From an uncultured Candidatus Saccharibacteria bacterium (GTDB lineage: Bacteria; Patescibacteriota; Minisyncoccia; Minisyncoccales; CG1-02-41-26): DNA of 36,041 nucleotides. The stretch covers positions 79,975-116,015 of the forward strand of contig CAYLHU010000001.1 in NCBI GenBank assembly GCA_964383715.1. Direction: 5' to 3'. The notes under the pieces were generated by a model. The model did not search any database. It had not been told where the DNA came from and saw only the letters and a program-made list of their open reading frames with translations. This document shows, piece after piece, positions 4,421 through 36,041 of the stretch (position 1 is the first letter of the stretch; each line of letters starts with the position of its first letter). A program made the translations under genes and the position numbers.

Positions 4421-4660
4421 AACAGATAAATTTCTAATTGACCTAATTTCTAATCAATAACCAATGTCTAATAACTAATTAGAGTTAAAATTCTAAACTC
4501 TAAATTCTAAACCCATTTATAATTTATTATTTATTATTTAGAATTTGTTTGGATTTTGACATTTGGATTTGATTTGACATTTGGATTTTGACATTTAGAT
4601 TTAAACCAAGAAATTAGTCATTGGTCATTGGGATTTCATTAGAAATTAGAAATGATAGGC
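4421..4660. repeat. short-word tandem arrays (TCTAAT / CTAAAC / GACATTTGGATTT words)
   Basis: Seen directly. The segment from about 4487 to 4540 is the inverted homolog of about 8975-9030. Confidence 0.7.
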
Positions 4661-4780
4661 GATGAAGCTAAAGCCTCATCTTGACTCGCTTGCCCGAGCA
4701 ACGGCGAAGGGTGGAAAAGATTTTTGAAAAAATCTTTGATTTACTTCGTAAAAACTCGTTAGAAATTAGGTTAATTTTAT

Positions 4781-5449
4781 TCAGTGTTTTCGTCTCTTGT
4801 ATTGTTTCATTATTTCAACACTGGAACTGCTCCCGACAATATCGGCGCCAGCTTTGACCATCATCTCAAAATCCTTCAATGTTCTTATCCCACCAGAGGC
4901 CTTAATTTTTAAACCCGGAGCCGCCTTTCTCATAATTTTAAGATGGCGCGCCTTTTCTTCCAATTCAATATTCCCTAAGGGGTCTTTATCGGTTGCCGTC
5001 TTAACACAAAATCCCCCTGCTTTTTTAACTACCTCTGATGCTTTTTCTATTTCTTCGTTCGTTAAATAACCAGAGCCAATAATAACTTTCGTAGGCAAAA
5101 TTTTACAAATATCCTTTAAGTCATTTAAAACCTCATCGTATCTTTCATATTTTATATCAATAACATTTAATACTACATCTAATTCATTGGCTCCGTCTTT
5201 CTTGGCTTTCTTACATTCCTCCACCCTTTTAGTATGAGAACTCAACCCCATTGGTGGGTCTATTAGAACAATTGTTTTTATCGTCGTATTTCTTAATTCT
5301 TGATTCACAAACTTTACCCATTTTGGGTTAACACAAACACTTCTAAAAGAATATTTTATCGCTTCCCGACAAGTTTTTTTTATTTCTTTCTCGGTGGCTG
5401 TTCCTTTAATATTTGTGTGGTCAATTATTTTAGCAGGATTTTTTAACAT
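4781..5449 (-). CDS. deoC: deoxyribose-phosphate aldolase
   Basis: IDHTNIKGTATEKEI, VCVNP, CVKTATD and IKASGGIR motifs. I moved the start to the ATG at 5449 (MLKNPAK) because the 11 upstream codons are a translated copy of the shared leader motif. Confidence 0.85.
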   Translation of the reverse strand: MLKNPAKIIDHTNIKGTATEKEIKKTCREAIKYSFRSVCVNPKWVKFVNQELRNTTIKTIVLIDPPMGLSSHTKRVEECKKAKKDGANELDVVLNVIDIKYERYDEVLNDLKDICKILPTKVIIGSGYLTNEEIEKASEVVKKAGGFCVKTATDKDPLGNIELEEKARHLKIMRKAAPGLKIKASGGIRTLKDFEMMVKAGADIVGSSSSVEIMKQYKRRKH

Positions 5450-5509
5450 ATTAGAGATTGTTAATGAGTGAATGCGGAGCATTCACGAATGTTACAATGT
5501 CTTACACCC
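5450..5509 (-). promoter_or_regulatory. shared leader cassette (variant) upstream of deoC
   Basis: Minus strand: GGGTGTAAGACATTGTAA, then the hairpin GTGAATGC..GCATTCAC, then TCATTAACAATCTCTAAT-ATG. Confidence 0.55.
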
Positions 5510-5610
5510 AGCACTTATTTTTACGGAAGTATTAGAAGGGTTTTAATTTTGTAATTCTAAGCGATAATGTTAATGCCTATTTTGTGTTTCTATAGAAATA
5601 AGTGCTGGGT
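5506..5610. mobile_element. MITE-like element, long form (copy 1), TIR ACCCAGCACTTATTT / AAATAAGTGCTGGGT
   Basis: Perfect 15-bp terminal inverted repeats. The interior is homologous to the other five copies. Confidence 0.75.
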
Positions 5611-5654
5611 TAGACGGATAAAAGGGCTTGATTAAGAAAAATTCTCCATTATGG

Positions 5655-6357: not shown

Positions 6358-7458
6358 TCAAATCAGCTCATTGCCGGTATAAATCGCATATTCGGAACCG
6401 TCTTTCTTTACTCCGAACTCAAAGTCATCAAAAATACCAGGAATACGGCGTTGAACCTCTTTGAGAAGATTTACTGCCGACCACCTGATTTCTGGATGAG
6501 CAGCTTGACCGGTTCGCAAATAAAACCAGTGAAGCCACTCTCTCAAATTATATGTTTGGACAATTTGGGATTCTATGCCAATTGGAAGCCATTGTCTGGC
6601 CTCTTCTGGCCTAAGTCCCCTTGCTCGTAAAGCTCGATACCATCCCTCGACTAAATCAACGAACTCTTGAGCAGTAAAAGAATAATTCATCCCTTTAACC
6701 TCAAGATTGACTTTCTGATTAAAATCAAAAATGTTGTTATAGGGAAGAATAAATTTAATTTGGAATTTTTCCAAATCTACTTGACCCTTAGCAAAGTCAA
6801 CATACCTGGTTGATGCTTGAGTATACGAAGTTATTTTTTCATCTCCATTTCTGCTTCGAACATCCTCGTGAGTGAATCCTCGGGAATGATTATTGAACTC
6901 CACCGTCATTGCTCGGTGGGTGAGAATGTCATCTCGTTTGATGATTAACGGACTTCTCGTTAATCTATGGCGATAAAACTTAAAAGAATTGGACTCTTCA
7001 AATCCTATTTCGGGTTGATGAAAAAGAACAGGATTTTCTTTGTGAAGCTCATATAAAAGAGTTTCAATCAGTCCTCTCCCTTCCATTTTTTTGCGAATGA
7101 CCTTTGAATAGGCCTCGTTAAAAATACGAGCATTACCAGAAATCAATAAGAAATCCTGCTCAGCAGTAACCTGAAAAAGCCCATTGGCTTTCAGCAAATC
7201 AAAACCTATTCTTTTTAAGGTGGTTTGGGAAAATGGGGAAAGGAAAAAACTGAACCAACTATGTTCCAGGACAGAATAATGCTTTATTTCCCAAATCATT
7301 TCAATAAACTCTTCCGGCGTTTTTTTGGTTTTTTCTCGTGTTTGGTGTGAAGTACAACCAGCCATCTTGATAAGTTCGTTCATTTCTTGGGGTAATAATC
7401 CTCCAACATCGTCAGATAAAATTCGAAAGCTTCCTTCTTTGAATAGTAATCTTGCCAT
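6358..7458 (-). CDS. thyX: ThyX-family (flavin-dependent thymidylate synthase-like) protein, atypically long and divergent
   Basis: HYSVLEH near the N-terminus. SRGFTHEDVRSR...TSYTQASTRYV stands in place of the canonical SR..HQ.VRHR..S..QQSQRY. The C-terminal part reads ARQWLP...NLREWLHWFYLRTGQAAHPEIR. One of the few genes here with a GGAGG Shine-Dalgarno site. Confidence 0.7.
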   Translation of the reverse strand: MARLLFKEGSFRILSDDVGGLLPQEMNELIKMAGCTSHQTREKTKKTPEEFIEMIWEIKHYSVLEHSWFSFFLSPFSQTTLKRIGFDLLKANGLFQVTAEQDFLLISGNARIFNEAYSKVIRKKMEGRGLIETLLYELHKENPVLFHQPEIGFEESNSFKFYRHRLTRSPLIIKRDDILTHRAMTVEFNNHSRGFTHEDVRSRNGDEKITSYTQASTRYVDFAKGQVDLEKFQIKFILPYNNIFDFNQKVNLEVKGMNYSFTAQEFVDLVEGWYRALRARGLRPEEARQWLPIGIESQIVQTYNLREWLHWFYLRTGQAAHPEIRWSAVNLLKEVQRRIPGIFDDFEFGVKKDGSEYAIYTGNELI

Positions 7459-7516
7459 TTCAATTCCTCCTGTGATTAAATTATTTATTTTTTAAAGTAC
7501 TTTAACAATTTTTTAT

Positions 7517-7936
7517 TTATTCTACCTCAATTCCCATACTCTTGGCTGTTCCTTCAATGATTTTAACTGCTTCATTAATATCTTTAGTGTTAAGGTCAGC
7601 CATTTTCTTTTGAGCAATTTCTTCTAACTGCTTTCTGTTGATTTTGGCAACTTTTTTCCGATTAGGGACTCCCGAGCCCTTTTCTATCCCAGCTGCCTTT
7701 TTTAATAATTCCGAAGTTAAAACGGTCTTTAATTTAAAATCAAACGAACCATTTTCGTAAGCCGTGATTTCAACAGGAATAGTAAAACCTTCCTGCTCAC
7801 TAGTAGCATCATTAAACTTTTGACAAAACTCGCTAATGTTTATGCCGTGTTGAGCCAAGCTGGGCCCCACTGGAGGAGCTGGGCTCGCTTTGCCGGCTTT
7901 AATATGTAATTTTACTATTGCTTTAATTTTCGCCAT
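7517..7936 (-). CDS. rplK: 50S ribosomal protein L11
   Basis: [26 protein letters not shown], 139 aa, downstream of nusG. Confidence 0.95.
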
Positions 7937-8551: not shown

Positions 8552-8743
8552 CTAAAACACTATCTTACTTAAAATTTTTATAAAAATAAAATCTAAAGCT
8601 CCTAAGAAAAAAGCTACTCCTAATGTTATCCCAACCACTATCAGGGTATGATTGATTGTTTCGTTTCGGGTAGGCCAATCAACTCTTTTAGCTTCAGTCC
8701 AAACTTCTTTAAAAAAAAGTTTTATTTTTTCCAAAATCATCAT
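8552..8743 (-). CDS. secE: preprotein translocase subunit SecE
   Basis: 63 aa, E.KRV.WPTR motif followed by a single TM helix, immediately upstream of nusG. Confidence 0.85.
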   Translation of the reverse strand: MMILEKIKLFFKEVWTEAKRVDWPTRNETINHTLIVVGITLGVAFFLGALDFIFIKILSKIVF

Positions 8744-8761
8744 ATTAGAAATTGTTTCCGC
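8744..8761 (-). promoter_or_regulatory. shared leader motif upstream of secE
   Basis: Minus strand: GCGGAAACAATTTCTAAT-ATG. Confidence 0.55.
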
Positions 8762-8779
8762 TCAAATTTATGAAGTAAA

Positions 8780-8808
8780 ATTGTAGCAGGTTAAAGTTTT
8801 GTTATTAA
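8780..8808 (-). promoter_or_regulatory. candidate promoter of secE-nusG-rplK: TTAATA-17 nt-TGcTACAAT
   Basis: It has the same extended -10 (TGcTACAAT) as the promoter at 12266-12293 and lies about 35 nt upstream of the secE ATG. Confidence 0.45.
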
Positions 8809-8851: not shown

Positions 8852-8870
8852 AAAAAAGCCCCAAAGGGGC
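8852..8870 (-). terminator. rho-independent terminator between gyrB and the secE promoter
   Basis: Minus strand: GCCCC-TTT-GGGGC followed by TTTTTTAAAAG. Confidence 0.6.
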
Positions 8871-8940
8871 TATAATTTAATACTACGCCCCACAGATAGT
8901 TTGTCAAGGTGTTCTCCCCCCTCGCAGTTATCGGAGCAAA

Positions 8941-9111: not shown

Positions 9112-11559
9112 TTAAATATCCAAATTCTTGACTTTCTTGGCGTAAAGCTGAATAAATTTCTTTCGGGGCATAACCTCTTTCCCCATTAATATGTCAAAAA
9201 TATGGTCAGCTTCTTTGGCGTCCTCAATAACCACTTTTAGCAATATCCTGTTTTGAGGGTCCATTGTCGTAGTCCAAAGTTCCAAAGGGTTCATCTCTCC
9301 CAAGCCCTTATATCGTTGGATATTTGGCTCTGTTTTTTTCTCTTTTTTAAAAGTGGTTAAAATCTCTTCTTTATCGGCATCCGTATAGGCATACTCTACG
9401 CTTTTCCCGCTTTGAATCTTATAAAGGGGTGGCTGGGCTATGTAAAGATATCCTTTATTAATTATCTCCCGAAAATATCTGTAAAACAGAGTTAAAAGTA
9501 ATGTTCGAATATGCGCCCCATCAACATCTGCATCGGTCATTATTATAATTCTTTGGTATCTTAGGCGACTTATATCAAAGTCCTGGGCGATGGCTGTTCC
9601 TAAAGCAATAATTAACGCCTTAACTTCGTTGAAAGTTAATATCTTATCAAGGCGTGCTCTTTCTACATTTAAAATTTTTCCTTTAAGGGGCAATATCGCT
9701 TGAAATCTCCTGTCTCTCGCCATTTTCCCACTATTATGGACAAAGACACCAGAAGCCAAAGCAAAATTATGAGTCCTCTCTACTTCTATATCGTAAACAT
9801 CTATTTTTTGAGAAACTTTGACTATTTTTTTGATACGATGATTATAATTTAACACAGCACTTTTTAATTTTTCTTTATCACTATCAAAAAATCTATGGCA
9901 AATTGTCTCATATTTTAAAATGCTCTTGTCATTTCTTAATTCCCGCTCTTGTTTTTTACGATAGAGTGGCATCAATGAATCTTTTACAGTAAGGTCTTCT
10001 GCTTTTTTATACCCCCCATTTCTTAACATAAACTTATGGTCGGGAGTACAGGTTATTTCTTCATCATTGTCCAATATCAATTTAACAACTTTCACCTTTT
10101 TCTTGGTTTTCCGAGCATTTTTTATTAATTCAACTCCAATCTCTCCATTTTCTTTTATGGTATAACAATAATTTTTCTTGCCTTCTTTTTCTTCCTTAAT
10201 TAACTCCTTAAAAGAAACATCTTTGCCATTTACTAAACTAATTTTCGTATCGCCGGCAAAACACCCTCCGGCGCTGTCTCCCTCAACTATATAAATTTCC
10301 GATTCGGACGGGTCCTTTGAGGAACAATCGGCTAATTTACCCGGTAAAGTCAACCCCTCTAAAATCCCTTTTCGCAAAACGGTTGTCCTCGCCACTTTGG
10401 CGGCTCTTCTTGCCCGAGCTGCCAAAAAACAATTTTCAATTATGGACTTGGCGTCTTGAGGGTTTTTCTCCAAGAATTCAGATAGGCCTTCTAAAACAAC
10501 GGCTTCAACAACGGACTTTGCTTCAGGATTCCCTAATTTAGCTTTCGTTTGCCCCTCAAATTGAGGTTCTTTTATTTTAACGGAAACGACCGAAGTCAAC
10601 CCTTCCCGAACATCATTCCCCGTGAGATTTTCATCCTTCTCTTTCAAGAAACCATTTTTCCGAGCATAATCATTCAAGGTTCTAGTCAACGCCCCTCTAA
10701 AACCGGTGAGATGGGTTCCCCCTTCGCCAGTAAAAATATTATTGGCAAAACTTTCCTCAAAACACTCCATCTCTTTTGTATATTGAAAAGCGGCTTCTAC
10801 CAAAATTTCATCTTTTTTCTTACAGGTATAAAAAATATGTTCGTGGCGAGGTTCGGAATCGTTAATTAGGTATTTAACATAGGAAGTCAAACCACCTTCA
10901 AAGTAAAAATTATAATCAAAATTAGGAAAAGTTCTTTCGTCGCGAACTTTTAATTTGACACCAAAACTTAAATAGGCCTGTTGACGAATATGATTTACAA
11001 TCTTTTTAAAATCAAATTTTACATTTTTAAATATGGTAGAATCGGGCTCAAAAATTATCGTTGTTCCCCTTTTATTACAACTTCCTATTTTTTTTATTTT
11101 CGTCTTTACTTTGCCTCGAGAATATTCTTGAGCATATTTCGCTCCATCCCGACAAACTTCAGCTCTCAAGTAATTACTTAAAGCACAAACAACAGAGACC
11201 CCAACTCCATGCAATCCCCCGGCTACCTGATAGGCCTTCCCACCGAACTTAGCCCCGGCATGCAAAGTCGTCATAACCGTTTCCAACGCCGATTTTCCGG
11301 TTTGAGGGTGCCTATCAACCGGTATCCCCCGGCCATTATCCTCGCATTTAATTCTGTTATCTGATAAAAGAGTGATTTCTATTTCGTTGGCAAAACCGGC
11401 CATCGCTTCATCAATACCATTATCTAAAACTTCCCAAACCAAATGGTGAAGTCCCTCGGGGCCCGTGGAACCAATATACATCCCCGGTCTTTTTCTGACC
11501 GGCTCAAGCCCTTTAAGGACATAAATATCTTTGGCACTATATTCTTCTTCTTTAATCAT
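9112..11559 (-). CDS. gyrB: DNA gyrase subunit B, interrupted by an in-frame mini-intein
   Basis: GHKL ATPase (HHLVWEVLDNGIDEA, GLHGVG), Toprim EGDSAGG ... IMTDADVDGAHI, and a QRYKGLGEM tail. It is 815 aa with the intein and 638 aa without it. Confidence 0.95.
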   Translation of the reverse strand: MIKEEEYSAKDIYVLKGLEPVRKRPGMYIGSTGPEGLHHLVWEVLDNGIDEAMAGFANEIEITLLSDNRIKCEDNGRGIPVDRHPQTGKSALETVMTTLHAGAKFGGKAYQVAGGLHGVGVSVVCALSNYLRAEVCRDGAKYAQEYSRGKVKTKIKKIGSCNKRGTTIIFEPDSTIFKNVKFDFKKIVNHIRQQAYLSFGVKLKVRDERTFPNFDYNFYFEGGLTSYVKYLINDSEPRHEHIFYTCKKKDEILVEAAFQYTKEMECFEESFANNIFTGEGGTHLTGFRGALTRTLNDYARKNGFLKEKDENLTGNDVREGLTSVVSVKIKEPQFEGQTKAKLGNPEAKSVVEAVVLEGLSEFLEKNPQDAKSIIENCFLAARARRAAKVARTTVLRKGILEGLTLPGKLADCSSKDPSESEIYIVEGDSAGGCFAGDTKISLVNGKDVSFKELIKEEKEGKKNYCYTIKENGEIGVELIKNARKTKKKVKVVKLILDNDEEITCTPDHKFMLRNGGYKKAEDLTVKDSLMPLYRKKQERELRNDKSILKYETICHRFFDSDKEKLKSAVLNYNHRIKKIVKVSQKIDVYDIEVERTHNFALASGVFVHNSGKMARDRRFQAILPLKGKILNVERARLDKILTFNEVKALIIALGTAIAQDFDISRLRYQRIIIMTDADVDGAHIRTLLLTLFYRYFREIINKGYLYIAQPPLYKIQSGKSVEYAYTDADKEEILTTFKKEKKTEPNIQRYKGLGEMNPLELWTTTMDPQNRILLKVVIEDAKEADHIFDILMGKEVMPRKKFIQLYAKKVKNLDI
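9733..10263 (-). mobile_element. 177-aa mini-intein within GyrB (residues 433-609), no homing-endonuclease domain
   Basis: It is inserted in the Toprim motif: EGDSAGG|CFAGDTKISL ... (TCTPDHKF, block B) ... VYDIEVERTHNFA ... GVFVHN|SGKMARD. It shows Cys1, the TxxH block, a terminal HN and a Ser +1. Confidence 0.9.
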
Positions 11560-14394: not shown

Positions 14395-14515
14395 AAAGGA
14401 AGGAAGGAAAAAGTGTAAAAGTGTAAAAGTGAGTAAGTGGACAAGTGAGTAAGTGGACAAGTGGATAAGTGAGTAAGTGGGTAAGTGAGTAAGTGTTGGA
14501 ATGTTGGAATGTTAG
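14395..14515. repeat. period-8 word array (GTGTAAAA, GTGAGTAA, GTGGACAA, GTTGGAAT)
   Basis: Seen directly, immediately upstream of the pheT start. Confidence 0.75.
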
Positions 14516-14558
14516 AGCAGATAAGTGGAATAAATAAAAAATAATAGAAAAAGAAAAA

Positions 14559-14874
14559 AGGTGCGTTTTGAAGGCGATGAGGGATTACCCTCATCTTTGC
14601 TCCTCGCTATGCTTGTCGCAGGCGATGAGGGATTACCCTCATCTGTGAGTCCACAAAGTGGGCGAATAAAGATGAGAGCAAAGCTCTCATCGCTTAACTC
14701 GCTCACTTTGTTCGTTTGGTGCGATCGTCCAGAAACGCACCTGTTTTTTACACGAAGAAAAGAAAATATAAAAGGTTCATTCTGGGACGATCGTCCAGAA
14801 ACGAACCTGTTTTTTTACACGAAGAAAAGAAAATATAAAAGGTTCATTCTAGGACGATCGTCCAGAAACGAACC
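14559..14874. repeat. composite hairpin repeat (unit X with internal duplications)
   Basis: It contains 2 copies of GATGAGGGATTACCCTCATC, the hairpin GATGAGAGCAAAGCTCTCATC, the hairpin GGTGCG..CGCACC followed by a T-run, and 2 copies of a module of about 63 bp with GGACGATCGTCC. Confidence 0.85.
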
Positions 14875-15015
14875 CAAACATAAAGACGGACAGGATAAGG
14901 CAAAAGAAACATTTTATAACAAATATCGCCGATCGTCAGGATTTGTTATAAAATAAATAAATAGATAAATATAGGCAAAAAAGGGAAAAAAAGGGGGAAA
15001 AGAATAAAAGAAAAA

Positions 15016-15216
15016 AGGTGCGTTTTGAAGGCGATGAGGGATTACCCTCATCTGTGAGTCCACAAAGTGGGCGAATAAAGATGAGAGCAAAGCTCTCATC
15101 GCTTAACTCGCTCACTTTGTTCGTTTGGTGCGATCGTCCAGAAACGCACCTGTTTTTTACACGAAGAAAAGAAAATATAAAAGGTTCATTCTGGGACGAT
15201 CGTCCAGAAACGAACC
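15016..15216. repeat. composite hairpin repeat (unit X, second copy, about 200 bp)
   Basis: Near-identical to 14559-14874 minus its internal duplications, in the same orientation. Confidence 0.85.
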
Positions 15217-15277
15217 CGATTGATAAAATGGAAAAAAGAAAAAAGGGAAAGAGGAAATAAAAAAAATAATAAAAAAG

Positions 15278-21964: not shown

Positions 21965-22028
21965 ATTAGAAGATGTTTCCGCTTAAGTTTTTACTCCGTA
22001 AAAAGTTAAGCGGATTACAGATTCTTAT
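21965..22028 (-). promoter_or_regulatory. shared leader cassette (full form) upstream of the rseP-like gene
   Basis: Minus strand: GGGTATAAGAATCTGTAA, then the hairpin CCGCTTAA..TTAAGCGG, then GCGGAAACATCTTCTAAT-ATG. Confidence 0.6.
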
Positions 22029-22133
22029 ACCCAGCACTTATTTATATGAAAATATTACAAGGGTTTTAACTTTATAAAACTAAATGATAATGTTAACCCC
22101 TATTTTGTTTTTCTGTATAAATAAGTGCTGGGT
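22029..22133. mobile_element. MITE-like element, long form (copy 2)
   Basis: Same TIRs, about 105 bp, same orientation as copy 1. Confidence 0.75.
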
Positions 22134-22151: not shown

Positions 22152-22709
22152 TTACCCCGCTATTTCTTTTTCTTTATTTTCAACTAAGTTTTTTATTTTA
22201 TCCTTATAGTCCTTAATTAAGTCCTCTAATTTCTCTTTCCCCCGAAACTTATCGTCTTCACTAATCTCTTTTTTTTGAAAACCGTCTTGCATATCCTTCC
22301 ATGCCTTATCACGCAATCTTCTAATAACTTGAAAAATATTTTCTTTCTTTTCGTTCAAAATTTTAATTAAGTTCTTTTTAGAGTCCTCTGTTAGAGAGGG
22401 TGCCGAAAGATAAATAGTATTTCCTTCTATCCTAATCCCCATTCCCAATTTTCTCTCTTCAATGGACTTAATAACCCCCTCAACATAGCTTTTATCCCAA
22501 AGTTGAATTGACATTCCCCTTAAGGGAGAAACTGAAACAATCCCTAATTGTTTCAAGGGTAAAACCGAACCAAAACAATCTACCTTAATTTCTTCTAACA
22601 AGGCAACTGGTGGCTTCCCGACTCTTATTTCTAATAATTGCCCCTTAAAAAAATCTAAGGATTTCTCAATTTGAGGTTTTATATTGTCAATAATTTCTTG
22701 ATAAGACAT
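22152..22709 (-). CDS. frr: ribosome recycling factor
   Basis: Typical RRF layout (...IRVGK..P.LLE.I.V..YG...PL.Q...) and 185 aa from MSYQEII. The 10 upstream codons (..AETSSN) are the translated shared leader. Confidence 0.9.
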   Translation of the reverse strand: MSYQEIIDNIKPQIEKSLDFFKGQLLEIRVGKPPVALLEEIKVDCFGSVLPLKQLGIVSVSPLRGMSIQLWDKSYVEGVIKSIEERKLGMGIRIEGNTIYLSAPSLTEDSKKNLIKILNEKKENIFQVIRRLRDKAWKDMQDGFQKKEISEDDKFRGKEKLEDLIKDYKDKIKNLVENKEKEIAG

Positions 22710-22730
22710 ATTAGAAGATGTTTCCGCCGA
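22710..22730 (-). promoter_or_regulatory. shared leader motif upstream of frr
   Basis: Minus strand: GGCGGAAACATCTTCTAAT-ATG, abutting a MITE-like TIR. Confidence 0.6.
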
Positions 22731-22810
22731 ACCCAGCACTTATTTGTACAGAAAAACAAATTTATAAAGTTAAAACATTTGTAATACTTTTATAGAAATA
22801 AGTGCTGGGT
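22731..22810. mobile_element. MITE-like element, short form (copy 3)
   Basis: Same TIRs, 80 bp, opposite internal orientation. It lacks the internal segment of about 25 bp. Confidence 0.75.
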
Positions 22811-22832
22811 TTGGCAGATTACAGATTCTTAT

Positions 22833-22912
22833 ACCCAGCACTTATTTATACAGAAAAACAAATTTATAAAATTAAAATCTTTGTAATACTTCCGTATAAA
22901 TAAGTGCTGGGT
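22833..22912. mobile_element. MITE-like element, short form (copy 4), tandem with copy 3
   Basis: Same TIRs, 80 bp, 22 bp after copy 3. Confidence 0.75.
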
Positions 22913-22963
22913 TTGGCGGAGTTAACATTAATTAGCCAATCGGGCTTTGGCTTCGCCTCACCC

Positions 22964-23809: not shown

Positions 23810-23811
23810 AA

Positions 23812-23937
23812 TTACGAATAGTATGATACAAATCTACGAATCTAATGCTAATCTACAAATCTACGAATTTGGTATCGTGTTAATTCGTAGCATTCGTAAT
23901 TCGTAGATTCGTGTTTATTCGTAGATTAGTATCGCTA
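23812..23937. repeat. about 125-bp imperfect-palindrome element rich in ATTCGTAG / CTACGAAT words (copy 1)
   Basis: It fills the mreB2-holB spacer. Over its whole length it is the reverse complement of the copy at 27931-28060. Confidence 0.75.
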
Positions 23938-25039: not shown

Positions 25040-25500
25040 GAGTTTTTGCTTTACAAAGGCAAAGATAAGGCGATGAGGGATTACCCTCATCTTTACAAGC
25101 TCACTTCATTCGCTTGTAGATGAAGCGAAGCATTCATCGCCATCAATCCTTTGCTTTACAAAGGCAAAGATAAGGCGATGAGGGATTACCCTCATCTATG
25201 AGCCCACAAAGTGGGCGAATAAAGATGAGAGCAAAACTCTCATCGCTTAACTCGCTCACTTCATTCGCTTGTAGATGAAGCGAAGCATTCATCGCCTGCT
25301 CAAGTGAGGCGAAGCCGAATGTAGAGCTAAGATGAAAACATAGTTTTCATCGCGAAACATCAAGTTTTTGCTTTACGCTCAATGAACACTTCGTGTTCAT
25401 TTCCACTCGCCTGCTCACTTTGTTCGCAGACTTCGTAATCAAAGATTTTTGAAAAAAATCTTTTCTACTCACCTTCGCTCTGCGAAGGTTCGTAAGCTAA
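25040..25500. repeat. mosaic array of GATGA...TCATC-type hairpins
   Basis: It contains two copies of TTTGCTTTACAAAGGCAAAGATAAGGCGATGAGGGATTACCCTCATC and two copies of CTCACTTCATTCGCTTGTAGATGAAGCGAAGCATTCATCGCC. It also has the GATGAGAGCAAAACTCTCATC, GATGAAAACATAGTTTTCATC and AATGAACACTTCGTGTTCATT hairpins and an AAAGATTTTTGAAAAAAATCTTTT palindrome. Confidence 0.8.
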
Positions 25501-26254: not shown

Positions 26255-26282
26255 ATTAGAAGATGTTTTCGCCGAACCCAAG
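26255..26282 (-). promoter_or_regulatory. shared leader motif upstream of the Cas4-like gene
   Basis: Minus strand: GGGTTCGGCGAAAACATCTTCTAAT-ATG. Confidence 0.6.
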
Positions 26283-26316
26283 TTTCCCCTTCTACTCACA
26301 TCGTTAGTATGCATTA

Positions 26317-26464
26317 GTAGATTGGTATCGTGTAATTCGTAACATTCGTAGCATTCGTAGCATTCGTAATTCGTAGATTCGTGTTTATTCGTAGATTGGT
26401 ATCGTGTTGATTCGTAGCATTCGTAATTCGTAGATTCGTATTCATTCGTAGATTGGTATCACAC
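26317..26464. repeat. ATTCGTAG-word element, two tandem partial units
   Basis: GTAGATTGGTATCGTGT..ATTCGTAGCATTCGTAATTCGTAGATTCGT..TTCATTC is repeated twice. It fills the spacer between rpsI and the Cas4-like gene. Confidence 0.75.
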
Positions 26465-27468: not shown

Positions 27469-27474
27469 AAACGA

Positions 27475-27570
27475 AAAATATTATTTAAAATTAATGTTGT
27501 CCGTTACATGCTACATGTTACATGTTACATGTTACACATTACATGTTACATGTTACATGCTAAACGCCCT
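27475..27570. repeat. period-7 word array (TTACATG about 8 times)
   Basis: Seen directly. It fills the rplQ-rplM spacer. Confidence 0.75.
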
Positions 27571-27916: not shown

Positions 27917-27930
27917 ACAACAAATTGTCC

Positions 27931-28060
27931 CGATACTAATCTACGAATAAACACGAATCTACGAATTACGAATGTTACGAATCACGAATAATTTATTTGT
28001 AGATTTGTAGATTAGCATTAAATTTGTAGATTTGTATCATATTATTTGCAGATTTGCATC
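27931..28060. repeat. ATTCGTAG-word element (inverted copy)
   Basis: CGATACTAATCTACGAATAAACACGAATCTACGAATTACGAATG... is the reverse complement of 23871-23934. It fills the rpoA-rplQ spacer. Confidence 0.75.
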
Positions 28061-28063
28061 ACT

Positions 28064-29038: not shown

Positions 29039-29130
29039 GTAGCGTGTAGTGTGTAGCGTAAAACGTAGAAATTAAATTTTACAAGTTACAAGTTACAGGT
29101 TACAAGTTTTAAGTTACAAGTTATAAGGTT
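29039..29130. repeat. word arrays (GTAGCGT/GTAGTGT, then period-7 ACAAGTT about 6 times)
   Basis: Seen directly. It fills the rpsD-rpoA spacer. Confidence 0.75.
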
Positions 29131-29760
29131 CTAACGTGAATAAAATTCAAAAACAGAAGAAATTTTTACCGGGATTTCGGAATCATTTAAAGATGGTTCG
29201 CCTATAACTTTAGCCGTTACTTTTTCTTTATCAATCTCAAGCCAAGATGGCAAATTAACTTTTTTCATCGTCAAAAGAACTTTTTTGAAAAACTCTTTTT
29301 TTCTTTTTCCCTCTTTTAAGGAAATTATATCCCCTTTTTTAACTTGATAAGATGGGATATTAACCGTTCTCCCGTTAACCAAAAAATGGCTGTGGCTAAT
29401 AATTTGACGGCCTTGAGTTGTCGAAGAAGCAAACCCAAGCCTAAAAACGACATTATCTAATCTCTTCTCGAGTTTTTGAATAAGGTCTAAAGAAGCGTCC
29501 TCTACCTTCCCTTTTTTAGATAAAATATCTTTAATGTATTTCTTGAATTGTCTTTCGGAAACACCATACCAGTTTCTTATTTTTTGCTTTTCCATCAATT
29601 CTTTCCCGTATTCGGAAAAACTCCGTCCTTTTTTCTTTTTCTTTTGACCGGGCGGATAAGGTTTTCTTATTAAAGGACATTTGGCAGAATAACATTTCTC
29701 TCCTTTGAGAAAAAGTTTTTGCCCTGTCCTTCGACAAATTTTACAAGTATTGGTTTTCAT
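29131..29760 (-). CDS. rpsD: 30S ribosomal protein S4
   Basis: N-terminal Zn-ribbon-like CKICRR.G.KLFLKGEKC, a LEKRLDNVVFRLGF.S S4 domain, 209 aa. Confidence 0.95.
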   Translation of the reverse strand: MKTNTCKICRRTGQKLFLKGEKCYSAKCPLIRKPYPPGQKKKKKGRSFSEYGKELMEKQKIRNWYGVSERQFKKYIKDILSKKGKVEDASLDLIQKLEKRLDNVVFRLGFASSTTQGRQIISHSHFLVNGRTVNIPSYQVKKGDIISLKEGKRKKEFFKKVLLTMKKVNLPSWLEIDKEKVTAKVIGEPSLNDSEIPVKISSVFEFYSR

Positions 29761-29830
29761 GTTAGAAAATGTTAGTCTGCCGAAGTTTTGCGGAGCAAAA
29801 GTTTGGCAGGTGTTACAGATTCTTACACCC
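29761..29830 (-). promoter_or_regulatory. shared leader cassette (variant) upstream of rpsD
   Basis: Minus strand: GGGTGTAAGAATCTGTAA, then the hairpin CTGCCAAACTTTTGC..GCAAAACTTCGGCAG, then ACTAACATTTTCTAAC-ATG. Confidence 0.55.
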
Positions 29831-29922
29831 GTCTAAGTTTTGCCTTCGGCAAAATTTGGGCGGGTAAAGGTTTGGTTACTAAAAACTCTTCGGCTTCGCC
29901 TCGCATTTTTAGACCAAACACT

Positions 29923-30375: not shown

Positions 30376-30396
30376 ATTAGAAGATGTTTTCGCCTA
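30376..30396 (-). promoter_or_regulatory. shared leader motif upstream of rpsK
   Basis: Minus strand: GGCGAAAACATCTTCTAAT-ATG, abutting a MITE-like TIR. Confidence 0.6.
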
Positions 30397-30476
30397 ACCC
30401 AGCACTTATTTCTATAAAAGTATTACAAATGTTTTAACTTTATAAATTTGTTTTTCTGTACAAATAAGTGCTGGGT
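30397..30476. mobile_element. MITE-like element, short form (copy 5)
   Basis: Same TIRs, 80 bp. It starts 21 nt upstream of the rpsK ATG. Confidence 0.75.
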
Positions 30477-30498
30477 TAGACGGGTTACAGATTCTTAT

Positions 30499-30600
30499 AC
30501 CCAGCACTTATTTCTGAAACACAAGATAGAGATTAACATTATCGTTCAGATTTATAAAGTTAAAACCCTTGTAATATTTCCATAGAAATAAGTGCTGGGT
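30499..30600. mobile_element. MITE-like element, long form (copy 6), inverted relative to copy 5
   Basis: Same TIRs, about 102 bp. Confidence 0.75.
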
Positions 30601-30664
30601 AAAGTTCTGCCAACCAATCGCGCTACGTCTCGTTACACTCGGCTTGCGCTCTTGGGGCATCATT

Positions 30665-31054: not shown

Positions 31055-31055
31055 A

Positions 31056-31200
31056 TAATTTTAAAATTTCTAATTTCTAATTAAACTAATTTCTAATTAA
31101 TGTCTAATATCAGAATGTCTAATTTCTAAAATTTTGGTCACTTTTTCATTAGCTTCTGTTCTTAATTAGATATTAGATATTAGAAATTAGTAATTAGTTA
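31056..31200. repeat. word arrays (TTCTAAT / TGTCTAAT / ATTAGAT)
   Basis: Seen directly. It fills the rpmJ-rpsM spacer, with the two halves partly inverted relative to each other. Confidence 0.7.
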
Positions 31201-31220
31201 TTGCTTTTGCGAAGCAAAAG

Positions 31221-31337
31221 CTATTTCCCCTGTCTTTGTTTATGCTTAGGATTTTCGCAAATAACATAAACCCGACCCTTTCTTCGAACGATCTTACAAT
31301 CTTTACAAATTTTTTTAACTGATGGTCTAACTTTCAT
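31221..31337 (-). CDS. rpmJ: 50S ribosomal protein L36 (absent from the supplied ORF track because it is under 60 aa)
   Basis: My translation of the minus strand gives [38 protein letters not shown], 38 aa, between infA and rpsM as in the canonical operon. Confidence 0.9.
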
Positions 31338-31347
31338 CGTATTTAAC

Positions 31348-35688: not shown

Positions 35689-35755
35689 ATATGAAATAAA
35701 TCTATTTATTATTCTATCATAAATCCTAAATTTTGAAAGACACTAAACTAAAAAA

Positions 35756-36041
35756 GGTTCGTTTGTGTGCGATGAGGGATTACCCTCATCTTTACAAACT
35801 CACTTCGTTCGTTTGTGGACGATCGTCTTAGAATGCACCCTTTTTCTTTTTCTTTCCTTCGTGCAAAAAAAGGTTCGTTTGTGTGCGATGAGGGATTACC
35901 CTCATCTTTACAAACTCACTTCGTTCGTTTGTGGACGATCGTCTTAGAATGCACCCTTTTTCTTTTTCTTTCCTTCGTGCAAAAAAAGGTTCGTTTGTGT
36001 GCGATGAGGGATTACCCTCATCTTTACAAACTCACTTCGTT
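35756..36041. repeat. tandem repeat, 116-bp period, about 2.5 identical units, running off the window
   Basis: The unit contains GCGATGAGGGATTACCCTCATC and GGACGATCGTCT. GGTTCGTTTGTGTGCGATGAGGG recurs at about 35756, 35872 and 35988. Confidence 0.85.

Follow-up and report, generated by a model that had tools for sequence, protein, structure and literature searches.

The 36,041-nucleotide stretch of contig CAYLHU010000001.1 analyzed here (hereafter the window) includes rseP, frr, rpsK, rpsD, secE, deoC, and a gene for a PD-(D/E)XK ("Cas4-like") protein. Directly in front of the start codon of each of these genes lies a copy of the same repetitive element, the cassette, which ends in a leader of 14 bases that lacks G and is fused to the ATG. 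The host is a bacterium of the candidate phyla radiation (CPR), and its closest named frr homologues belong to the Patescibacteria/Parcubacteria group of CPR bacteria. A preceding sequence-only reading of the window had proposed that a portable, repeat-associated cassette sits on the start codons of unrelated genes. This description holds, many of the genes are housekeeping genes, and the association with elements resembling miniature inverted-repeat transposable elements (MITEs) is confirmed. On sequence comparison, the leader proves to be the 3'-terminal module of a lineage-specific palindromic repeat with two hairpins that has been secondarily invaded by a MITE with terminal inverted repeats (TIRs), and this conserved 3' tail makes up the whole leader of the downstream gene.

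The leader joined to a start codon (GCGRAAACAWYTTCTAAT-ATG) occurs five times in the window against an expectation of zero, with two variants besides. The five exact matches to GCGRAAACAWYTTCTAATATG are restricted to the minus strand (at 8741, 21962, 22707, 26252, and 30373), and every one of them terminates in the ATG of a long open reading frame (ORF). They precede secE, rseP, frr, the PD-(D/E)XK gene, and rpsK, the same five genes that had been named in the sequence-only reading, and the close variants that it placed before deoC (TTAACAATCTCTAAT-ATG, at 5449) and rpsD (CTAACATTTTCTAAC-ATG, at 29760) are found there as well. Chance similarity or an artefact of assembly is a negligible explanation for this pattern. 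Metagenome contigs often break at these repeats, and four of the contigs (L014, L016, L018, and L019) terminate inside cassettes, but none of 100 dinucleotide-preserving shuffles yields even one match to GCGRAAACAWYTTCTAATATG, and the same loci of the same species have been assembled, almost base for base, from more than 10 independent metagenomes with different pipelines.

With seven further copies in flanking or related contigs, the number of leaders rises to 14. All 14 are directed at the downstream ATG, which follows immediately in 13 copies and after 2 nt in the remaining one, and all 14 cassettes are located in spacers between co-directional genes. The start codons themselves are well placed: those of frr, rseP, rpsK, rpsD, and the PD-(D/E)XK gene (all five starts that were checked) coincide with the N-termini of orthologues. 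The false N-terminal extensions that the sequence-only reading had ascribed to the motif are real; an example is frr, whose entry in a public protein collection (P0001) is a 195-residue product begun at the GTG at 22739. The ten additional residues (22710-22739) are translated from the leader and the end of a MITE, whereas the orthologues begin MSYQEI. Longer ORFs also appear in the ORF list of the window for deoC and the PD-(D/E)XK gene, for which gene callers picked the leader-adjacent ATG; for secE, the gene caller picked the second ATG (8740), 3 nt downstream.

Read on the minus strand, full copies of the cassette run from the upstream stop codon through a variable 5' part, hairpin A, a linker termed M1 (RTAAGAATCTGTAA), hairpin B, and AAACATCTTCTAAT to the ATG. 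This order is shared by 12 of the cassettes, and the other two of the 14 are truncated. The succession of hairpin, linker, and leader described in the sequence-only reading is a property of the full cassettes, but not of the copies before the PD-(D/E)XK gene and secE, which are truncated or decayed and have no linker. The 5' part varies in length from 16 to 64 nt and contains recurrent small modules (GAGGCGAAGCC, GCGATTGG, and others, e.g., a GGC-GAA-GCC mini-hairpin). The arrangement is mosaic, with changing 5' modules and with the invariant M1 between the two palindromic units. When queried with GGGTRTAAGAATCTGTAA, the window gives five linker matches at up to 3 mismatches (0.1 expected), each followed by a hairpin and then by the leader. 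Hairpin A always starts with ACCC and ends with GGGT; it is either a small palindrome, as at rpsD (ACCCGCCCAAATTTTGCC-GAA-GGCAAAACTTAGACGGGT) and, in similar form, at nusB, or a MITE of 80-105 nt. Hairpin B also has two forms. The simple form is a palindrome of about 37 nt (TCCGCCAAAC-TTTTTAC-loop-GTAAAAA-CTTTGGCGGA and variants), and the nested form, which is found before frr, rpsK, nusB, rplO, ftsZ, and ileS, retains the basal arms YCYGYCWA / TWGGCRG while a whole MITE replaces the apex.

The cassettes of the window all lie on the minus strand and illustrate each of these forms. In the rseP cassette, the leader (AACATCTTCTAAT, 21965-21977) abuts the rseP ATG (21964-21962) and is preceded by an A at 21978. 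Next to it are a simple hairpin B (21978-22014; TCCGCTTAAC-TTTTTAC-GGA-GTAAAAA-CTTAAGCGGA) and M1 (ATAAGAATCTGTAA, 22015-22028), whose AGAA..TGT can pair with the ACA..TTCT of the leader. Slot A of this cassette holds a MITE 105 nt long (22029-22133) whose TIRs of 15 nt (ACCCAGCACTTATTT) are perfect, and on its 5' side an 18-nt 5' part reaches the frr stop codon (22152-22154). The frr cassette fills the holB-frr spacer (22710-22963) and comprises the leader (22710-22722), the 3' arm of hairpin B (22724-22730), a nested MITE (22731-22810), the 5' arm (22811-22818), M1 (22819-22832), a second MITE in slot A (22833-22912), and a 5' part with the GAGGCGAAGCC mini-hairpin (22913-22963). The rpsK cassette, which fills the rpsM-rpsK spacer (30376-30664), is built in the same way from the leader (30376-30388), 3' arm (30390-30396), nested MITE (30397-30476), 5' arm (30477-30484), M1 (30485-30498), slot-A MITE (30499-30600), and 5' part (30601-30664).

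The rpsD cassette fills the rpsK-rpsD spacer (29761-29922) and is free of MITEs; its leader (AACATTTTCTAAC, 29761-29773) is preceded by hairpin B (29777-29809), M1 (29813-29826), the small hairpin A (29827-29865), and a 5' hairpin with GAGGCGAAGCC at its apex (29866-29922). The deoC cassette (5450-5654) has a variant leader (AACAATCTCTAAT, 5450-5462), hairpin B (5468-5486), a variant M1 (GTAAGACATTGTAA, 5492-5505), a MITE (5506-5610), and a 5' part (5611-5654). Of the truncated copy before the PD-(D/E)XK gene (26255-26280), only the 3' arm (TCGGCGA) and the TGGGT of a MITE end are left besides the leader; 8-nt tandem repeats lie upstream. The decayed copy before secE (8744-8790) retains the leader (AACAATTTCTAAT, 8744-8756) and an arm remnant (GAGCGG) with weak CUGCU/AGCGG pairing, and its M1 is not recognizable.

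The hairpins had been characterized as gene-specific sequences that nevertheless always pair. Pairing is indeed kept, and kept through compensatory changes, but the hairpins are homologous palindromic units with a common base (YCYGYCWA / TWGGCRG) and a variable apex. As they share this base and the module order, all of them belong to a single family whose members have diverged. When 11 copies of hairpin B are aligned, 15 of 17 pairs have changed on both sides, and 89% of the alignment cells are paired compared with 36-46% when the partners are slid against each other; none of 500 shuffles attains these values. Hairpin B is, to judge from this covariation, maintained by compensatory changes; the stems contain both G·U and A·C mismatches, and their occurrence does not discriminate between selection on RNA and on DNA. 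The loop triplets (TCC, GGA, TTC, AAA, and GAA) of these near-perfect palindromes define no orientation, and GTAA is found directly 5' of hairpin B in all copies aligned. Hairpin B and the small hairpin A are about 37-39 nt long and homologous to each other. The small hairpin A together with M1 is about 63% identical to hairpin B together with the leader, above most shuffles, and the cassette therefore looks like two units in tandem, each composed of a palindrome of about 37 nt and a tail of 13-14 nt made of A, U, and C.

The two tails are also mutually complementary, and AGAA-UC-UGU of M1 can form 7 bp with ACA-UC-UUCU of the leader. This helix is 98.7% paired across the copies and yet almost invariant. 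In the variant copy before deoC, the pairing is kept by coordinated changes (AGA-C-ATTGT / ACAAT-C-TCT). In the predicted RNA fold, the M1-leader helix lengthens hairpin B so that only AAU-AUG is left free.

The nested element is defined by the TIR AAATAAGTGCTGGGT, whose 12 matches in the window correspond to six elements of 80-105 nt. This inner ACCCAGCAC element has perfect TIRs of 15 nt, is multicopy, is shorter than 300 nt, and has no coding capacity, as is characteristic of TIR-MITEs. Further copies are present in contigs L004, L005, L032, and L053, and the MITE is positioned either in slot A or inside hairpin B. Copies of 102-105 nt are oriented one way relative to the gene in four cases and the other way in two (the 80-nt copies cannot be assigned an orientation and are not part of this count), whereas M1 and the leader never flip. 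The MITE has no copies outside cassettes in about 100 kb, and no direct repeat marks a target-site duplication; the flanks read CWA...RTAAG or CWA...TWGG. The MITE forms a layer of its own.

Outside the window, the same genome carries two more cassettes, one between rpmF and nusB (L032 1254-1469) and one between rpsE and rplO (L053 2236-2479); the latter junction is where uL30 is encoded in non-CPR bacteria. A scan of metagenomes recovered four true contigs only, with cassettes on the starts of ftsZ (L004/L006), ileS and rplT (L005), and a membrane protein gene (L007). Contigs L004, L005, and L007 share no genes with the window organism by which their divergence from it could be gauged. The two cassettes of L005 run in opposite directions, each facing its own gene, and the second copy in L007 is the one with a 2-nt gap to the ATG. 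A scan of species-representative genomes (596 Gb) gave two chance matches only. Viral contigs contained no linker and only chance matches to the leader; as a control, 19 chance 18-mer matches in viral contigs were without hairpins and mostly had no ORF after them.

Syntenic relatives with 64-78% frr identity have no cassette at the rpsM-rpsK, rpsK-rpsD, holB-frr, or frr-rseP junctions. In relatives at 64-67% identity, these spacers measure 11 nt (rpsM-rpsK), 33 nt (rpsK-rpsD), 25 nt or an overlap (holB-frr), and 47 or 6 nt (frr-rseP). In the relative at 78% identity, the frr-rseP junction reads TAA-T-ATG, and a cassette-free spacer of 233 nt before frr is the sole exception to the tight spacing. 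In the closest cassette-free relative (L020), a TGAAAAT array precedes frr. Because the cassette loci are tight in relatives (up to 47 nt, or overlapping) and free of cassettes, the copies are lineage-specific insertions, and judged by synteny they have enlarged originally tight junctions between the genes of conserved operons in a single, narrow lineage of Parcubacteria. Two alleles of the spacer after rpoA exist within the species, with tandem repeats in most strains (window 27917-28063) and a cassette in L018 (4187-4392) and L019 (2925-3113). In the latter two contigs, which are independent assemblies, a 5' part (CCCAAGAGCGCAAGCCGA...), a MITE, and M1 come after the rpoA stop codon, and both contigs end within the cassette; the 3' junction of this allele was not recovered, and all seven rplQ contigs returned have the tandem-repeat allele.

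The sequence-only reading had stressed that the motif lacks GGAGG. This is correct in so far as no cassette leader contains a G from -14 to -1, and none has a Shine-Dalgarno (SD) sequence (a GGAGG-like tract 5-10 nt before the start), but such a lack is not confined to the cassette. SD sequences are rare among the genes of the window and among those of the cassette-free relatives alike; their scarcity is therefore a trait of the genome rather than of the cassette. Similarly, among 28 start regions that were examined, 22 contain no more than one G from -14 to -1, all seven cassette leaders included, so that the composition of the leader is typical of start regions in this organism. An SD exposed in a hairpin loop was considered and rejected, as GGAG occurs in the rseP loop but other copies have TCC, TTC, or AAA. 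The gene that follows rplK is thyX (Pfam Thy1 in L032) and not rplA (window 6358-7936), and uL1 is missing from its canonical place. About half of the Parcubacteria are reported to be without the anti-SD motif, in overlap with the group that lacks uL1, and in this uL1-lacking subgroup the anti-SD sequence CCTCCT is often absent (PMC9297842). The order rplK-thyX without rplA fits this anti-SD-poor subgroup (PMC9297842). The loci read include no rRNA genes.

A fusion of this precision could mean that AAACAUCUUCUAAU, possibly together with the M1 tail and the hairpin, is a dedicated initiation or regulatory signal that the ribosome, bS1, or some protein or RNA acting in trans specifically recognizes and that sets or co-regulates the translation of housekeeping genes, with the repeat serving as its vehicle. 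The exact junction with the ATG in 13 of 14 copies and the constant orientation with the gene are expected of such a signal, as is the persistence of the leader in both truncated copies. M1 and the leader are nearly invariant among copies, those of the L007 organism included, whereas the stems diverge through compensatory changes. The start codon is also somewhat more accessible in cassette genes, with a mean probability of being unpaired of about 0.62 at -3 to +3 compared with about 0.42 in other genes, although positions -4 to -13 are not more open. The proposal is nonetheless unlikely. Over roughly 55 kb of the window genome, only about nine of some 58 genes carry a cassette, and they have no functional theme; the orthologues in relatives at 64-78% frr identity do without it; and both the composition and the predicted accessibility of the leader are average for start regions of this genome. 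Conserved ends are also typical of transposition or recombination signals. The leader was never seen apart from the repeat, contrary to what a signal independent of the repeat would lead one to expect and in line with a refuting condition that the sequence-only reading had set, and both linker-less copies keep remnants of a MITE end or a hairpin arm, for which reason the leader is regarded as a terminus of the repeat. The cassette matches no known RNA family: in Rfam 15, only tRNAs reach the gathering score, and relaxed scans return sub-threshold generic hairpins resembling miRNA precursors. There is likewise no conserved upstream ORF that might allow termination and reinitiation at the TAA of CTAAT, and an in-frame start codon is lacking in 9 of 13 copies.

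The TATAAG/TAAGAAT of the linker had been compared to a -10 box. Extended to the whole cassette, this comparison yields a portable promoter with a 5' stabilizer, in which M1 (TRTAAGAAT) would act as a -10 or extended -10 box, transcription would begin at the base of hairpin B, which would protect the 5' end, and the 14-mer would be the whole leader. Hairpins at the 5' terminus stabilize bacterial mRNAs (e.g., the ompA leader), M1 is strongly conserved, and TATAAG / TGTAAGAAT does resemble a -10 or extended -10 box. Several findings make a promoter improbable. No -35 partner (TTGAC[AT]) lies 16-18 nt upstream, and a sigma-70 scan flags no M1, while canonical TTGACA-N16-17-TAnnnT sites do occur elsewhere in the genome. 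All 14 cassettes are inside co-directional strings (e.g., rpsM-rpsK-rpsD-rpoA) and none is in a divergent promoter region. The complementarity of M1 to the leader suggests that both are in one transcript, and the two truncated copies have no M1 at all.

The exact junction may alternatively reflect how the element inserts. A selfish, hairpin-ended element without target-site duplication (e.g., an HUH/Y1 element related to RAYT or IS200/IS605 systems) could insert next to ATG (CAT on the other strand) and survive only where it lands 5' of a start codon, with no function for the host. Such an element would account for the absence of a target-site duplication, the subterminal hairpins, and the asymmetry of the ends, one exact at the ATG and the other variable (16-64 nt). 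The GTAA directly 5' of hairpin B recalls the GTAG of REP sequences, and the two opposite cassettes of L005, each turned toward its own gene, are oriented according to the target strand. Two possible duplications were also rejected as such: the upstream stop codons are TAA, TGA, or TAG, which excludes a TAA duplication with the TAA of the leader, and a TA/ATG duplication at the 5' edge is not significant, as an ATG is near some edges and absent in the rseP, ftsZ, and L007 copies. Insertion at ATG without any host role is doubtful on other grounds. No base is shared beyond the ATG, and a 3-nt target is shorter than the known targets of 4-5 nt; other intergenic ATGs, e.g., in CATGTAA arrays, are free of cassettes; no Y1 transposase is among the Pfam matches in the roughly 55 kb of genome read; and the compensatory changes in the stems point to a constraint of long standing.

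The cassette is probably best understood as a mosaic intercistronic repeat, similar to repetitive extragenic palindromic sequences and bacterial interspersed mosaic elements (REP/BIME), whose tail is a generic SD-independent leader. The element is an unusual variant of the REP/BIME/MITE type of repeat rather than a demonstrated new translation signal. In the proposed mechanism, the cassettes would be co-transcribed with the flanking genes and would fold into two long mRNA hairpins, which are plausible substrates of RNase III or stability elements. Cleavage of long hairpins is plausible because RNase III is encoded nearby (rnc, 9 kb left of the window). The G-free tail would be left as the only leader before the native AUG, and it would act as an ordinary AU-rich, SD-independent initiation region rather than through specific pairing with rRNA. 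The precise fusion to the ATG in a fixed orientation points to either insertion specificity or strong selection for a working initiation region.

Some observations weigh against a generic repeat of this kind. Ordinary REP/BIME or MITE copies are neither orientation-locked nor fused to start codons, and a selfish repeat alone does not predict 13 zero-gap junctions in 14 copies with a 5' edge that varies from 16 to 64 nt. Both truncated copies retain exactly the leader end, and conservation is far stronger in M1 and the leader than in the stems; a functional signal would show these two features as well. The predicted pairing of M1 with the leader would partly occlude positions -4 to -13 and fits poorly with an unstructured leader. 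No transposase, target-site duplication, or pair of empty and filled alleles was found, and the mobility of the cassette is therefore only inferred.

These points leave some room, though not much, for a stronger role than that of a mosaic repeat with a generic tail. The cassette might be a mobile, structured "plug-in" intercistronic region that installs an SD-independent initiation site at native starts, possibly with an RNA-processing hairpin, and that is retained by selection where SD/anti-SD pairing has largely been abandoned; in that case, the conserved AAsAUCUsUAAU tails that follow the two hairpins would be what the ribosome, bS1, or a processing factor recognizes. If so, it would provide the first concrete handle on the choice of start codons in such CPR bacteria, a lineage reported to be anti-SD-poor in which start-site selection is poorly understood. 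A fusion that reflects function would make the cassette a natural "portable 5' UTR" (untranslated region) and would reveal which features matter for SD-less initiation or for the processing of polycistronic mRNA, and a fusion that reflects insertion specificity would make it a mobile element that targets start codons. The practical effects include false N-terminal extensions from gene callers and metagenome assemblies that are broken at cassette loci.

The window contains at least 60 families of direct repeats, other palindromes included. Tandem arrays of 7-8 nt (CATGTAA, TTCGTAGA, TTAGAAAT, and others) fill many other intercistronic spacers on the minus strand (27469-27568, 27917-28063, 26281-26464, 23810-23937, 29039-29130, 31055-31347, 4421-4780, and 14395-14506). 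Given these repeat families and tandem arrays, the cassette is one element among spacers that are generally invaded by repeats. The copy number of the rplQ-rplM array varies among strains, in which the spacer measures 73, 101, or 115 nt. A second palindromic family (GATGAGGGTAATCCCTCATC with flanking modules) is located at 14555-15242, 25051-25271, and 35750-36041; it includes a duplication of 224 nt around the tRNA genes as well as three tandem copies of a 116-nt unit at the right edge of the window. Further palindromes of the window are GGACGATCGTCC and AAAGATTTTTTTTAAAAAATCTTT. The gyrB product (9112-11559) has a match to the intein-splicing domain PF14890 between its GyrB domains. Upstream of secE on the minus strand (8860-8910), a canonical promoter-like site (TTGACA-16-TAGTAT) is followed immediately by a GC-rich hairpin and a U-tract (GCCCCTTTGGGGCTTTTTT), which could specify a short transcript or an attenuator. 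On contig L053, two hypothetical genes on the opposite strand (1123-1533 and 4727-5545) are reversed within the ribosomal-protein/secY string, and both have canonical TTGACA...TAnnnT promoters and SD-like sequences (GGAG/AGGAG), unlike the surrounding housekeeping genes.

Among known systems, integron attC sites also have imperfect palindromes, conserved ends, and a variable center, and they also lie directly 5' of the next ORF. The cassette was rejected as an attC site: RYYYAAC/GTTRRRY core sites are absent in most copies (which have ATTAGAA on the opposite strand), the flanking genes are syntenic housekeeping genes, and no integrase was found. REP/BIME, Correia, and ERIC repeats are well known, but a family whose 3' edge is at the start codon (13 of 14 copies) and that is always oriented with the gene is not. 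In REP/BIME of Enterobacteria and Pseudomonas (REPINs/RAYTs), short imperfect palindromes are paired with a conserved linker between them, are combined with other small motifs into mosaics, and are extragenic yet within operons; the same is true here, with 14 cassettes in about 100 kb, each built in its full form from two clustered palindromic units and the invariant M1. Their stems are likewise kept through compensatory change, a conserved tetranucleotide marks the 5' foot of the hairpin (GTAG in REPs, GTAA here), and mobile elements nest in the palindromic units (IS1397 in the loops there, the MITE here). In contrast to REP/BIME, which usually lie close to the 3' terminus of the preceding gene, the cassettes are AT-rich, always oriented with the downstream gene, and placed with their 3' edge on its start codon, and no RAYT was identified among the Pfam matches of the roughly 55 kb read.

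The Correia elements of Neisseria (CREE/NEMIS) and the ERIC elements of Enterobacteria are TIR-MITEs of 80-150 nt that lie in transcribed intergenic regions and give rise to extended hairpins in mRNA. RNase III is known to act on Correia elements, which also affect the expression of neighboring genes. The inner MITE, with its 15-nt perfect TIRs and a long form that occurs in both orientations, resembles them. Correia elements differ in that they duplicate a TA target, can create promoters, and insert in either orientation at variable distances from genes, whereas here there is no target-site duplication, the MITE is found only inside cassettes, and the cassette is orientation-locked at the ATG. 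Finally, the leader has the properties of SD-independent initiation regions, as known from Bacteroidota, cyanobacteria, plastids, and anti-SD-lacking Parcubacteria: GGAGG is absent, A and U abound and G is scarce ahead of the AUG, and the start codon is locally accessible. In those systems each gene has a leader of its own, whereas here many genes share a single identical 14-mer that comes with a repeat.

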